A stretch of DNA of 64,000 nucleotides from Candidatus Nomurabacteria bacterium (lineage in GTDB: Bacteria > Patescibacteriota > Minisyncoccia > Phycocordibacterales > SBAW01): the NCBI GenBank assembly GCA_943356495.1, contig CALRFF010000002.1, positions 165,875-229,874 of the forward strand, written 5' to 3'. Of this stretch, positions 5,238-7,492 are shown in pieces. The notes under the pieces were generated by a model, which saw only the letters and a list, made by a program, of their open reading frames with translations, made no database searches and was not told the origin of the DNA. The position numbers and the translations under genes were made by a program. Position 1 is the stretch's first letter. Every line of letters starts with the position of its first letter.

Positions 5238-5270
5238 TTTGACATCCCCTCGGGGCTGTATATACTGTCT
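5238..5270 (+). promoter_or_regulatory. Candidate rRNA promoter (TTGACA -35, TG-extended TATATACT -10) upstream of the 16S leader
   Basis: TTGACATCCCCTCGGGGCTGTATATACT read directly from the sequence. About 300-nt leader before the 16S 5' end. Confidence 0.4.
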
Positions 5271-5573
5271 TTATTACTGCCACACGGCGGTTTTTTATTC
5301 GCCCGGACAGCGACTGGGGTGTAGGAGGCTTGCACGGTAGGGACAGTCGGTCATTGAAAATTGAATAAGAAGAAATTGTAAGAATTGATCACACCAAAGA
5401 CCTTTGCCGTACAAGCGGCGAAGGCAAGCAAGCAAAAGTATCTTCTTAAAAAGCTTTAGGAGAGTTTGAGAGAAGAAAACCAAGAGAAACCTGCCAGCCT
5501 AGCGGCTGGTTACATTTCTCTTGTTCCGTTCATCGAGTCTAGGGAGCGAGATTAAAACCTCGTTCTTATATTC

Positions 5574-7030
5574 AGAGTTTGATCCTAGCTCAGGATGAAT
5601 GCTGGCGGCGTGGATAAGGCATGCAAGTCGAACGCCCCGCAAGGGGAGTGGCAGACGAGGTAGTAATATACAGGTACGTACCGAGAAGTCGGGCATAGCT
5701 ATTCGAAAGAGTAGGTAATTCCCGATAGTCTTTCCGAAGTAAAGGAGCAATCCGCTTTTTGAACGGCCTGTACTGCATCAGCTAGTTGGAGTGGTAACGG
5801 CACACCAAGGCTATGACGCATAGGGGAGCTGAGAGGCTGACCCCCACCGATAGCACTGAGACACGGGCTATACACCTACGGGTGGCTGCAGTCGAGAATC
5901 TTCCGCAATGGACGAAAGTCTGACGGAGCGACGCCGCGTGGTTGATGAAGTCCTTCGGGACGTAAAAACCTTTTATGAGGGAGGAAGTTATTGACGTTAC
6001 CTCATGAATAAGGGGCTCCTAACTCTGTGCCAGCAGGAGCGGTAATACAGAGGCCCCAAGCATTATCCGGAATCACTGGGCGTAAAGGGTGTGTAGGCGG
6101 TCGTATTAGTCTTTCGTGAAAGCTTTTGGGCTTAACCCAGAAAACGCGGAAGAAACGGTACGGCTACGAGGATGTGAGAGGTATATGGAACTCATGGTGT
6201 AGGGGTGAAATCCGTTGATATCATGGGGAACACCAAATGCGAAGGCAATATACTGGCACACTCCTGACGCTGAAACACGAAAGCGTGGGAATCGAACGGG
6301 ATTAGATACCCCGGTAGTCCACGCCCTAAACGATCATCACTGGCTTTAAGGAGTATCGACCCTCTTTGAGGCGAAGCTAACGCGTTAAGTGATGCGCCTG
6401 GGTAGTACGATCGCAAGATTAAAACTCAAAGGAATAGACGGGGACTTGCACAAGCGGTGGATCATGCGGCTCAATTCGATGGCAAACGAAGAACCTCACC
6501 AGGGTTTGAAACCCAACTGTAATCCTTAGGAAACTTTGGACCTCGCAAGACTGTTGGGCAGGTGATGCATGGTCGTCGTCAGTTCGTGGCTTGAGTTGTT
6601 CCCTTCAGTGGGGTAACGAACGTAACCCGCGTTGCCTGTTTTAAATGTCAGGCGAGACTGCCCCCTCACGGGGGAGGAAGGTGCGGATGACGCCAGATCA
6701 GCATGTCCCTCTGATATCCTGGGCTGCACGCATGATACAATGGACGCGACAACGAGACGCAATAGGGTAACCTGGAGCAAATCTTTAAACGCGTCCCCAG
6801 TTCGGATTGAGGTCTGCAACTCGACCTCATGAAGCCGGAATCGCTAGTAATCGCGGGTCAGCTATACCGCGGTGAATACGTTCTCAAGTCTTGTACTCAC
6901 CGCCCGTCAACTCAAGGGAGCCGGGAATACCCGAAGGCCAGCTTTTGCTGGACCACGGTAAGTTCGGTGACAGGGAGTAAGTCGTAACAAGGCACGGGTA
7001 GCGGAAGCTGCTCGTGGAACAATTCAAATG
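5574..7030 (+). rRNA. 16S ribosomal RNA (divergent, CPR-like); 3' boundary approximate
   Basis: AGAGTTTGATCCTAGCTCAG at the 5' end. Recognisable 338/515/785/907/1390/1492 regions, several with substitutions at normally invariant positions (GTGCCAGCAGGAGCGGTAA; GTACTCACCGCCCGTCAA). Helix 45 with GGAA loop at 6993-7016. Confidence 0.85.
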
Positions 7031-7458
7031 AAATGCATTTCTGTATCTCGTACGAGTACAGAAATTGAATCGGCGATCTCATTCGCAAGAATGAAGGCAT
7101 GATAGTGCTAATGCTAAATTGCACTCGGTTTGTGGCCCATACACGTTAGGGCCCTCGAGACCGCCCCAGTACACTGTGGAGTACACAGTCGGAAGCAAGG
7201 CGGTTCGAACGGAACAAGAGAAAGGTAGTTTCTCACTTTTGCGGGTACTCAGTTTTTACAATCCACACCGCCCCTTTACACTAAAAGGGGTTTGGTGCTA
7301 TGGTCGAGTTAGACGCTTTCGCCGGTTCACCAAGCAGAGGAGAAGCGCATGTCGGCCAGTCGCCGCCAACAGCCCACCGAATTTACGTGGCGGGTGCTTA
7401 TCTTCCACCTCAAGAGAACGAGGAGACTGCTCCGATCCTGATTTTTTATGAACGATGT

Positions 7459-7492
7459 CCCGACCGCGCTTTGCGGTCGGGATTTTTCTTTT
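7459..7492 (+). terminator. Rho-independent terminator closing the 16S transcription unit
   Basis: CCCGACCGC-GCTTT-GCGGTCGGG followed by ATTTTTCTTTT. Confidence 0.7.

Follow-up and report, generated by a model that had tools for sequence, protein, structure and literature searches.

The 64,000-nucleotide stretch of DNA analysed here (hereafter the window) carries a stand-alone 16S rRNA gene whose 3′ end has lost the anti-Shine-Dalgarno (anti-SD) sequence. In the reading that we favour, to which we give a probability of roughly 0.8, this unlinked gene would be transcribed as a precursor of ~2.2 kb in which a leader/trailer stem encloses the 16S together with a spacer that is later removed, in a genome whose genes do without SD sequences. 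Pairing between SD and anti-SD is the textbook mechanism of start-site selection in bacteria, and few rRNA sequences are as conserved as the anti-SD; the locus offers a clean example of a lineage in which it has been deleted from the gene, and where a conserved replacement tail occurs together with start codons that directly follow -10 boxes and with genes devoid of an SD signal. The phenomenon itself has already been published, and what is added here are the tail motif, the precursor stem, the structured spacer and the link to the gene starts.

An intact and unlinked 16S rRNA gene

The Rfam model RF00177 matched the window with 1347.2 bits (gathering threshold of 50) from model position 1 to 1533, in a contiguous alignment of 1463 nt (Table 1), and the locus is a real, intact and stand-alone 16S gene of a CPR bacterium (Parcubacteria/Paceibacteria). 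The initial annotation, made from the letters of the sequence, had quoted altered 515 and 1390 regions, and the alignments to RF00177 confirmed both sequences as quoted. In the well-established E. coli numbering of 16S positions, the pseudoknot of the 530 loop contains U505-A526 and C506-G525 in place of two G-C pairs, and A1409-U1491 takes the place of a C-G pair, so that the pairs 505-507/524-526 and 1409-1491 are preserved through double changes. Because pairing partners compensate for the altered "universal" bases, the rRNA looks functional. Moreover, the core sites tested in the 530 loop and the decoding site (A1492/A1493), namely GCGGUAAUAC, AAGUCGUAACAAGG and the GGAA loop of helix 45, are intact. 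This group of organisms will escape primers designed for the 515 and 1390 regions.

As only a single window was seen, misassembly is common in rRNA regions and several contigs with the upstream gene break within the leader, the gene could be suspected of being a decaying pseudogene or an assembly artefact, with a canonical 16S elsewhere in the genome. We regard this as highly improbable in view of the full-length and high-scoring match to RF00177, the tertiary and secondary pairs maintained by compensatory changes, and a promoter, processing stem and terminator that are all intact. The 16S region is, besides, 100% identical in two public contigs (NCBI MAG contig CALRDI010000005.1 and ENA contig k141_2248002), and the same tail and helix 45 recur in 23 species genomes and 120 metagenome contigs. 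The intact gene is probably the single 16S copy of its genome.

The absence of a downstream 23S gene, noticed from the outset, was confirmed by Rfam, which gave zero LSU matches and no 5S anywhere in the window, from 5.5 kb before the 16S to 57 kb beyond it; nor was any rRNA gene called among the genes that L001 lists in the 10 kb preceding the kinase gene. The distance between 16S and 23S exceeds 1500 bp, which is how Brewer et al. recognise unlinked rRNA genes, and the only other RNA genes of the window are tRNA-Ile(GAU) (7925-7999) and tRNA-Leu(CAG) (8033-8115). Relatives likewise lack a linked 23S, and unlinked rRNA genes are known from the Patescibacteria as well as from further phyla (Brewer et al. 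2019, bioRxiv 10.1101/705046). The features of the locus that had been called unusual are present, but the lineage shows them as a rule and they have been described before.

A 3′ tail without the anti-SD

The covariance alignment agrees with the earlier placement of helix 45, which is identical across all the anti-SD-less loci compared. The canonical GAUCACCUCCUUA tail with its CCUCC anti-SD is absent after this helix, as had been claimed; in its place we find GAACAAUUCAAAU, whose columns align one by one with the consensus GAUCACCUCCUUU, which indicates that CCUCC has been replaced. A ribosome with such a mature tail would be unable to form the SD/anti-SD helix, since the tail holds no CCUCC. 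The 3′ end of these genes will also trouble 16S annotation tools. A mini-hairpin in the tail (UUC-loop-GAA, 7023-7032) was considered and rejected: it is invariant in the close set, and a sister group has a single covariant version of it (UCC/GGA), but it fails in several relatives.

The initial annotation had also envisaged an intron or intervening sequence just before the anti-SD; splicing to a downstream 3′ exon (for example, the CCACCUC at ~7396) would then restore a canonical tail. CPR 16S genes often hold insertions, and among the relatives there are 16S genes of 1.9-2.8 kb (L186, L204, L242 and L193) as well as a group I intron (L109), which the same Rfam tool did detect. However, no group I or group II intron was matched in the window, and a permissive scan of 6780-7560 in E-value mode returned terminator look-alikes only. 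The tail lines up base for base with that of the consensus and is thus not truncated, no conserved CCUCC occurs within 520 nt downstream in the relatives examined, and CCTCC is merely sporadic among 123 distinct relatives, belonging to the stem of the P1 hairpin when it lies near helix 45. The CCACCTC at ~7396 does exist, but it sits in a stretch conserved in no relative and seems to be there by chance, and the arm of the processing stem in which the trailer ends precedes it. Altogether, there is scarcely any chance that an intron is at work here.

The loss of the anti-SD is clade-wide, and it has already been published for the group. A genome scan revealed 23 species genomes whose tail is devoid of CCUCC, comprising every genome with the helix 45 CACGGGUAGCGGAAGCUGCUCGUG; all 23 agree in helix 45 and have the motif GGA-NNN-AUUCAA in common, and they go by the names Nomurabacteria, Zambryskibacteria, Parcubacteria and Paceibacterota. 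The same scan found GGAUCACCUCCUU retained in Magasanikbacteria and Saccharimonadia, and the replaced type of tail appeared in 120 further metagenome contigs. A first pattern for genome contigs, based on the loop of helix 45 alone, was too broad, and most of its 120 rows were Thermoleophilia and Chloroflexota, which were reused as anti-SD-containing controls. Among the species genomes that share this helix 45 and this tail, the closest bear the titles Ca. Nomurabacteria (L077), Ca. Zambryskibacteria, Parcubacteria group and Ca. Paceibacterota (in the NCBI lineage, Patescibacteria group; Parcubacteria group), which points to an organism within the Parcubacteria/Paceibacteria. In the part of the study of Tsurumaki 2022 (RNA 28:1041, PMC9297842) considered here, just 48% of the Parcubacteria have a detected anti-SD motif, and the anti-SD-less lineages overlap with the group lacking uL1. 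No ribosomal protein gene was found among the scanned proteins of the 64-kb window, a result that concerns this window and not the genome as a whole.

Promoter, processing stem and a probable structured spacer

The promoter and strong terminator ascribed to the gene at first sight both held: the TTGACA and TATACT boxes match the consensus at 11 of 12 positions, with a transcription start predicted near 5273 and a leader of ~295 nt, and a terminator stem followed by a T run lies at the other end (Table 1). Transcription from this promoter would yield a precursor of ~2.2 kb ending at the intrinsic terminator.

Table 1. Features of the 16S rRNA locus (positions refer to the window)
Feature	Position	Strand	Basis
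Sigma-70-type promoter, TTGACA-16 nt-TATACT	5239-5266	+	11/12 consensus matches
5′ leader of pre-16S	5273-5566	+	between promoter and Rfam 16S start
Leader/trailer stem, 5′ arm, TACATTTCTCTTGTTCCGTTC then ATCGAG	5511-5537	+	complementarity
16S rRNA gene, full length, insertion-free	5567-7029	+	RF00177 covariance alignment
Helix 45, CACGGGUAGC-GGAA-GCUGCUCGUG	6993-7016	+	RF00177 alignment
3′ tail GAACAAUUCAAAU, unpaired, anti-SD absent	7017-7029	+	RF00177 alignment
3′ precursor spacer (putative), structured	7030-7206	+	alignment A1, 34 distinct relatives; RNAalifold
P1 hairpin	7039-7064	+	alignment A1
Box UGAAUCGGCGAU	7066-7077	+	alignment A1
P2 hairpin	7079-7094	+	alignment A1
H-type pseudoknot	S1 7096-7100 with 7111-7115; S2 7104-7108 with 7121-7125	+	alignment A1
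P4	7134-7138 with 7149-7153	+	alignment A1
Box CUCGAG	7154-7159	+	alignment A1
P5 hairpin	7160-7205	+	alignment A1
Leader/trailer stem, 3′ arm, GAACGGAACAAGAGAAAGGTA	7207-7227	+	complementarity to leader
Transcript 3′ tail, non-conserved	7228-7456	+	nothing aligns past the arm in the five closest relatives
Intrinsic terminator	7457-7493	+	12-bp stem (7457-7483), 8 G-C pairs, then TTTTTCTTTTC

The early suggestion that the leader pairs with a long 3′ trailer was borne out by a duplex of 21 nt with 95% complementarity (5511-5531 with 7207-7227), whose arms co-vary across related groups. The ATCGAG of the leader pairs in addition with a CTCGAT box of the trailer, a pairing for which the relative L148 carries the covariant ATTGAG/CTCAAT. 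In each of the 10 relatives with a 5′ flank, the arm TTTCTCTTGTTCC precedes the 16S by 38-103 nt, and the arm differs by group (TTTCTCTTGTTCCGTTC, TTTGTTTTGTTTCGTTC, TCTTGTGTTCCGCCTATTC), each version being perfectly complementary to its own trailer. Within the 3′ arm, GGAACAAGAGAAA is invariant in 34 of the 34 sequences of alignment A1, and in the five closest relatives conservation ends right after this arm. Such an extended duplex around the 16S, maintained through compensatory changes, is that of an RNase III-type processing stem. The leader (5511-5537) would pair with the trailer at 7154-7159 and 7207-7227, looping out the 16S plus a structured spacer of ~190 nt, and the duplex may offer the entry site for RNase III. 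CPR genomes keep RNase III, RNase J and PNPase, and Era, the binder of GAUCACCUCC, is mostly missing from them (PMC12641178, PMC10582724); rnc was not seen within the 64-kb window. Two other candidates in the region were discarded. The AUUCAG at the 5′ end of the 16S could pair with the UGAAU box that follows P1 in some relatives but is mismatched to it in others, and the ORFs 7119-7451 and 7300-7587, considered as trailer genes, are not conserved in relatives, the first of them giving no Pfam match either.

The region between the tail and the 3′ arm is structured. In alignment A1, 92.9% of the cells are paired versus 83.7% in shuffles, and the covariation score of 0.321 (0.156 when shuffled) was reached by none of 500 shuffles, whereas slid controls scored 0.05-0.12. 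The perfect palindrome CTCGTACGAG remarked upon in the initial annotation proved to be the tip of a hairpin conserved with covariation. No Rfam family matches the spacer. It has more conserved structure, including the pseudoknot, than a simple spacer requires.

We read 7030-7206 as a precursor spacer that is probably removed, so as to leave a mature 3′ end some 13-18 nt after helix 45. In this regard, a record of 16S length from a relative (L232, FPLS01010479.1; 1462 nt, 89.7% identical) begins 10 nt before AGAGUUUG and ends in GGAACAAUUCAAAG, at the equivalent of ~7030 and 14 nt past helix 45. The ends of L232 would be true RNA ends provided that, as we assume, the FPLS01 records were generated with the RNA-based approach of Karst et al. 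to full-length SSU sequences. FPLS01 records have been used as 16S references in papers.

Another possibility is that the pseudoknot domain (7030-7206, ~190 nt) is kept in the mature 16S and forms a lineage-specific 3′ expansion segment at the platform and mRNA exit site, where it would replace the SD/anti-SD helix or help to recruit leaderless mRNAs. The domain sits inside the processing stem and not outside it, compensatory changes are seen in P1, S1 and S2, boxes such as UGAAUCGGCGAU and GUGAUAGUGCUAA hardly vary among the 34 relatives, and its stable hairpins would impede 3′-to-5′ exonucleases. If retained, it would take part in SD-independent start-site selection and might account for the conserved GGGGAG-type motifs of a few leadered genes. 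Retention is nevertheless unlikely, as the domain evolves much faster than the 16S (trailer identity of 52-75% versus 90-94% for intron-free 16S genes in the relatives compared), with whole hairpins gained or lost and a trailer length of 129-209 nt in the nine relatives compared. Moreover, bacteria that contain the anti-SD, with a 16S known to end in CCUCCUUU, have in-stem 3′ spacers of similar length: in 49 such loci the 3′ arm lies 46-246 nt after the tail (median of 131), and ~190 nt is ordinary for Actinomycetota, Chloroflexota and CPR (median of 131 nt). The stop of L232 at 14 nt past helix 45 also argues for removal of the spacer.

Gene starts without SD signal

Motifs of the SD type are no more frequent before the genes of the window than elsewhere. 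SD 4-mers precede 8% of the starts and 8% of the control sites, and 5-mers 3% and 2%, respectively, whereas the same script applied to 50 kb of E. coli K-12 as positive control gave 39% versus 4% for 4-mers and 27% versus 1% for 5-mers. In the pooled anti-SD-less loci the figures were 11% versus 8-10%. The anti-SD-containing loci were also tried as a positive control for SD usage and turned out to be a poor one (21-25% versus 10-15%). Strong GGAGG-type SDs had been reported for several genes of the window, and the two named sites were checked: at least two leadered genes, those at 7587 and 12862 (minus strand), carry textbook SD-like motifs with proper spacing. The overall frequency of the motif is, however, that of the background, with no enrichment 5-12 nt upstream of the starts of the window. 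One of these motifs, the GGGGAG preceding the 96-aa ORF (an OB-fold gene), is retained in four homologues, and the pooled relatives display a small excess of SD motifs at a spacing of 5-8 nt (~24 of 563 genes). The rest of the genome would seem to have adapted, its genes carrying no SD above background, and gene callers that score SDs will misplace starts in genomes of this kind.

The new tail could be thought of as an alternative anti-SD, in which AAUUCAA pairs with a UUGAAUU-like motif of the mRNA, and the strong conservation of AUUCAA across a wide clade does indicate selection on the tail sequence. The gene starts make this very unlikely: 5-mers complementary to the tail precede 6 of 59 genes as against 13.8% of the control sites, the values for 6-mers are 1 of 59 and 2.7%, and the k-mers that are enriched are either -10-like (ATAAT, GTATA) or stop-codon words. 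The idea of a non-canonical anti-SD put forward initially was right in spirit, but as no motif complementary to the tail is enriched, "no anti-SD" is the better description.

What does precede the start codons is a -10 hexamer. TAnnnT occurs at -16 to -3 of 22% of the window starts versus 8%, with a peak for hexamers starting at -12 (6 genes versus 0.6 expected); the values are 41-44% versus 11-12% in relatives and 5% versus 8% in E. coli. This enrichment ~6 nt before the start codon is of the leaderless type, and such -10 boxes abutting start codons would fit leaderless mRNAs. The signal covers ~20% of the window genes, for which start calls are crude; with the same crude calls, the -10 box is adjacent to the start in 3 of 24 unit-first and 8 of 35 operon-internal genes, a split so muddled that we quote the pooled enrichment alone. 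Leaderless use would place the transcription start on the first base of the AUG in the genes at 12935, 22708, 31368, 36548, 43370, 52968, 60317 and 62157. The genes are also tightly packed: of 35 junctions between neighbours on the same strand, 13 are overlaps of 4 or 1 nt. Initiation, as we infer it, would be of two modes: about one-fifth of the starts, placed directly behind a -10 box, would belong to leaderless mRNAs, and most other genes, which overlap or abut the preceding one, fit a coupling by termination-reinitiation. A literature search gave, in the collection searched, no paper linking leaderless mRNAs, Patescibacteria or Parcubacteria, and SD.

Comparison with known systems

The closest parallel is found in the anti-SD-less Parcubacteria of Tsurumaki 2022, as described in the passages of that paper considered here: the lineage is the same, CCUCCU is gone from the 16S 3′ end and the loss is shared by a clade and not sporadic. 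The replacement tail motif and the precursor architecture, together with the missing SD and the -10-adjacent starts, are given here and not in those passages. With respect to the unlinked rRNA genes of Brewer et al., the pattern is the same and nothing material differs, with a tRNA-Ile(GAU) still following the 16S. The insertions and introns in CPR 16S genes (Brown et al. 2015, in what Brewer et al. cite of it) concern the same phylum-level group, and relatives of our gene carry insertions. The extra sequence of this locus, in contrast, comes after the 3′ end and not within the gene.

In the rrn operons of E. coli, RNase III cleaves the leader/trailer stem. A long leader/trailer duplex encloses the 16S both there and here, where cleavage is predicted, but the 3′ spacer inside the stem is structured and ~190 nt long in our locus versus 33 nt in E. 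coli. The Bacteroidota, in which the anti-SD is reportedly present yet sequestered (work of Jha et al. in 2021), also have genes largely without SD and an initiation that, as seems to be the case here, is independent of SD/anti-SD pairing; they keep CCUCC in their rRNA, whereas here it has been deleted from the gene. Mycobacterium and Deinococcus, finally, are rich in leaderless mRNAs and retain both the anti-SD and SDs on leadered genes. They share with this locus a -10 hexamer at -12 to -7 from the start codon, such that transcription would start at the AUG itself, but the anti-SD that they have kept is absent from the ribosomal RNA described here.

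The 16S rRNA gene and its surroundings

The initial annotation described a stand-alone, divergent 16S rRNA gene lacking the CCUCC anti-Shine-Dalgarno (anti-SD), an observation that is confirmed. The alignment with the Rfam model keeps helix 45 where it had been placed, followed by a tail without canonical anti-SD: compared base by base with the consensus, the tail is full-length, yet its CCUCC is replaced. In a permissive Rfam re-scan of 6780-7560, only terminator look-alikes appeared beyond the 16S, and no other family was reached. Rfam finds no 23S or 5S anywhere within the window, whose only other RNA genes are two tRNAs, and the promoter and terminator of the unit are as originally described. 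Moreover, the stretch 5230-7600 is 100% identical to CALRDI010000005.1 (NCBI MAG GCA_943354885.1) and to one ENA contig, and therefore a one-off assembly error is unlikely.

Features of the 16S unit and of neighbouring genes in the window
Feature	Position	Strand	Remarks
16S promoter	5239-5266	+	TTGACA / 16 nt / TATACT
Terminator-like hairpin	5276-5298	+	ACTGCCACACGGCGGT + T6 run
Leader arm	5511-5531		pairs with trailer arm
16S rRNA	5567-7029	+	full-length match, Rfam bacterial SSU model, 1347 bits
Helix 45	6993-7016	+	permissive Rfam re-scan
3' tail	7017-7029	+	13 unpaired bases, GAACAAUUCAAAU, aligned with consensus GAUCACCUCCUUU
GUCGRU-type box	7071-7077		CGGCGAU
Pseudoknot stem S1	7096-7100 with 7111-7115	+	alignment A1
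Pseudoknot stem S2	7104-7108 with 7121-7125	+	alignment A1
Trailer arm	7207-7227		pairs with leader arm
16S-unit terminator (T run follows)	7457-7483	+
96-aa ORF	7587-7877	+	upstream region 7520-7586
tRNA-Ile(GAU)	7925-7999		RNA gene
tRNA-Leu(CAG)	8033-8115		RNA gene
Fasciclin-domain paralogues	8205-8813 and 9232-9870	+
SD-like site and ATG 12862	12862-12880	-	UAAGGAGGUCGUC-AUG
T4SS coupling protein	15027-16775
ComEA-like HHH+PKD protein	16762-17895

The substitutions noted at near-universal positions are present, but they are compensated at their pairing partners. On the established E. coli pairings (505-507/524-526 and 1409-1491), the Rfam alignments reveal that the 530 loop has GGA in place of GCC (524-526), matched by UCC in place of GGC (505-507) on the other side of the pseudoknot, resulting in pairs U505-A526 and C506-G525, with C507-G524 as before. 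The pair C1409-G1491 is changed to A-U. A1396 is replaced by U at an unpaired position, and no change affects G530, A1492, A1493 or the helix-45 GGAA loop. Because the changes at paired positions are compensated by their partner bases, the gene looks functional.

About 3 nt past the point where 16S transcription is predicted to begin there is a terminator-like hairpin, which may terminate the upstream secDF-kinase operon and would also form part of every pre-16S transcript. Two fasciclin-domain paralogues lie just past the tRNA pair. After the ComEA-like gene, about 35 kb encode glycosyltransferases, methyltransferases, sugar epimerases/dehydratases, a carbamoyltransferase and glycerophosphotransferases, and the region 13.7-52 kb as a whole looks like a large surface-glycan cluster.

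Anti-SD loss among relatives

A scan for the helix-45 loop variant, with one genome per GTDB species, returned 120 loci. CCUCC-less tails occur in 23 of them, including every locus sharing the helix 45 of the window, and the genomes of all 23 bear the titles Ca. Nomurabacteria, Ca. Zambryskibacteria, Parcubacteria group or Ca. Paceibacterota, some being auto-labelled "Saccharibacteria". GGAUCACCUCCUU is retained in 97/120 loci, from Thermoleophilia, Chloroflexota, Magasanikbacteria and true Saccharimonadia. The anti-SD-less tails follow a pattern: the majority have the form GGA-NNN-AUUCAA-(1-3 nt)-UGAAA, with the variants GGAACAUAUCCAAUCGGAA in one sister group and GGAUCAUUUAUUUUUUU in another, and the window-type tail appears in at least 120 metagenome matches. 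Judged from this distribution of tails, anti-SD loss is a trait of the lineage, which NCBI places, for Nomurabacteria, in the Patescibacteria group; Parcubacteria group. One contig of 4080 nt (L179, Ga0182028_1463300) carries the tail pattern twice in inverted orientation, probably because rRNA was assembled there into a palindromic chimera. Among 18 anti-SD-less relatives scanned with Rfam (loci of at most 8 kb), a single one has a 23S, about 5.6 kb beyond the 16S (L113), and in most of the others tRNA genes come next.

Probable processing stem and structured spacer

Of the three suggestions made for the region after helix 45, two survive: that it is a trailer used in processing, and that the ribosome lacks canonical anti-SD pairing. 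The third, an intron just before the anti-SD, does not: the window gives no Rfam intron match, though the introns of relative L109 were detected by the same tool, the 16S of the window has no insertion, and no conserved 3' exon exists. CCTCC downstream of helix 45 is only sporadic among 123 distinct anti-SD-less relatives; it lies 20-25 nt past the helix in seven (L204, L216, L221 and others), and in the five identified by eye (L204, L221, L199, L169, L156) it makes up the 5' side of the first trailer hairpin, P1, and is hence paired. Some close relatives (L186, L204/L216, L242, L193, L109) have 16S genes of 1.9-2.8 kb, and thus large insertions; in L109 a group I intron interrupts the 16S, and a match to a group II intron domain lies downstream.

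The proposed pairing of leader and trailer was found as a 21-nt inverted repeat, 95% complementary. The leader arm is identical in the 10/10 relatives with complete 5' flank, 38-103 nt upstream of the 16S, their trailer arm lying 143-302 nt past helix 45. Other anti-SD-less groups have different arms, for instance TTTGTTTTGTTTCGTTC or TCTTGTGTTCCGCCTATTC, each perfectly complementary to its own trailer, so that both sides have changed together. The duplex is extended by leader ATCGAG with trailer CUCGAU, for which L148 has the covariant pair AUUGAG/CUCAAU, and a real helix is supported by these sequence comparisons. Alignability among the closest relatives ends directly after the trailer arm, and therefore 7228-7456, including a CCACCTC motif (about 7396) previously singled out, is unconserved filler before the terminator.

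The region between tail and trailer arm aligns well among 34 distinct relatives (alignment A1), with a conserved order of hairpin P1, whose tip is the palindrome already noticed after helix 45, a UGAAUCGGCGAU box, P2, a compact H-type pseudoknot, P4, the CUCGAU box and P5. Standard pairs fill 92.9% of the cells of A1 (83.7% in shuffles), and the covariation score of 0.321 (0.156 in shuffles) was reached by 0/500 shuffles and dropped to 0.05-0.12 when partners were slid by 1-3 columns; both-sided changes affect four pairs in S1 and three in S2. A GUCGRU box after the first post-16S hairpin is seen in anti-SD-less Paceibacteria as well as in anti-SD-containing Chloroflexota and Saccharimonadia (L044, L039, L063, L068, L114, L122, L127), which suggests a pre-rRNA spacer element common to both groups.

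Such a structured 3' domain might instead be retained on the mature 16S, which we consider unlikely, because identity to relatives is only 52-75% in this region, compared with 90-94% for their intron-free 16S genes, and entire hairpins are gained and lost among them. In 49 anti-SD-containing loci measured in the same way, the 3' arm lies 46-246 nt past the tail (median 131), for example 101 nt in Magasanikbacteria and 146 and 154 nt in Saccharimonadia; a 190-nt spacer like that of the window is therefore ordinary in these phyla, and the 33 nt of E. coli are not the rule. Moreover, a 1462-nt record 89.7% identical to the window 16S (L232, FPLS01010479.1) starts 10 nt upstream of AGAGUUUG and finishes at GGAACAAUUCAAAG, 14 nt past helix 45. 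FPLS01 records presumably originate from the method of Karst et al., which starts from RNA and uses poly(A) tailing; in that case these termini would be those of the molecules themselves, to within terminal A residues. Fast divergence, similar spacers in anti-SD-containing loci and the ends of L232 altogether point to a precursor spacer that would be removed.

How genes start

Gene starts were taken from crude calls of long ORFs, with internal ATG sites as control, for 59 genes of the window and, with the same script, 50 kb of E. coli K-12. SD 4-mers (-17..-4) precede 8% of window starts versus 8% of controls, compared with 39% versus 4% in E. coli; the figures for 5-mers are 3% versus 2% and 27% versus 1%. 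Pooled anti-SD-less loci gave 11% for 4-mers against 8-10% in the control. TAnnnT (-16..-3), on the other hand, is found at 22% of window starts versus 8% (E. coli, 5% versus 8%) and at 41-44% versus 11-12% in relatives, and in the window the hexamer most often begins at -12 (6 genes, 0.6 expected), the geometry expected if transcription starts at the A of AUG. An unbiased search upstream of starts returned -10-like words and stop codons as enriched k-mers, with no SD and no word complementary to the new tail. Same-strand junctions are tight, 13/35 overlapping by 4 or 1 nt and 28/35 falling within -16..+10 nt, which fits reinitiation coupling. From these motifs we infer that, with neither anti-SD nor SD, initiation would be leaderless and coupled.

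Strong GGAGG-type SDs had been pointed out before several genes; those before 7587 and 12862 do exist, but starts overall stay at background. The first precedes a 96-aa ORF, a real gene whose place after the 16S is conserved in four relatives (L077, L246, L209, L224), with no Pfam match and an AlphaFold model (pLDDT 76) of predicted all-beta, OB/cold-shock type, for which Foldseek gave weak matches to Rpb7-like, CspA and RNase R CSD folds. Its GTG start is preceded by GGAGGGGGAG at a distance of 8 nt and, about 35 nt upstream, by an extended -10 box. In the homologues, too, an extended -10 box is followed by GGGGAG or GGGGA at the corresponding position, despite their belonging to an anti-SD-less clade. 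The second SD-like site in this genome lies on the minus strand, where a textbook TAAGGAGGTCGTC spacer precedes the gene starting at ATG 12862. In pooled relatives, SD-like motifs form a small bump at spacing 5-8 nt (about 24/563 genes), and neither tail nor trailer contains their complement. They may be due to chance, a relic, an anti-SD-independent purine enhancer or a regulator site.

Comparison with known systems

In the literature searched, we found no paper linking Parcubacteria with leaderless initiation. The unlinked 16S, the divergent "universal" sites and the missing anti-SD are all known properties of Parcubacteria/Patescibacteria, to which we make modest additions: a conserved replacement tail, a covarying processing stem, a structured spacer with a pseudoknot, and SD-free, -10-adjacent gene starts. 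Unlinked rRNA genes were already published for Patescibacteria (bioRxiv 10.1101/705046). According to Tsurumaki et al. 2022 (PMC9297842), the anti-SD motif is found in only 48% of Parcubacteria, and the lineages lacking it overlap the uL1-lacking group; the loss in the clade of the window agrees with the anti-SD-less Parcubacteria described there.
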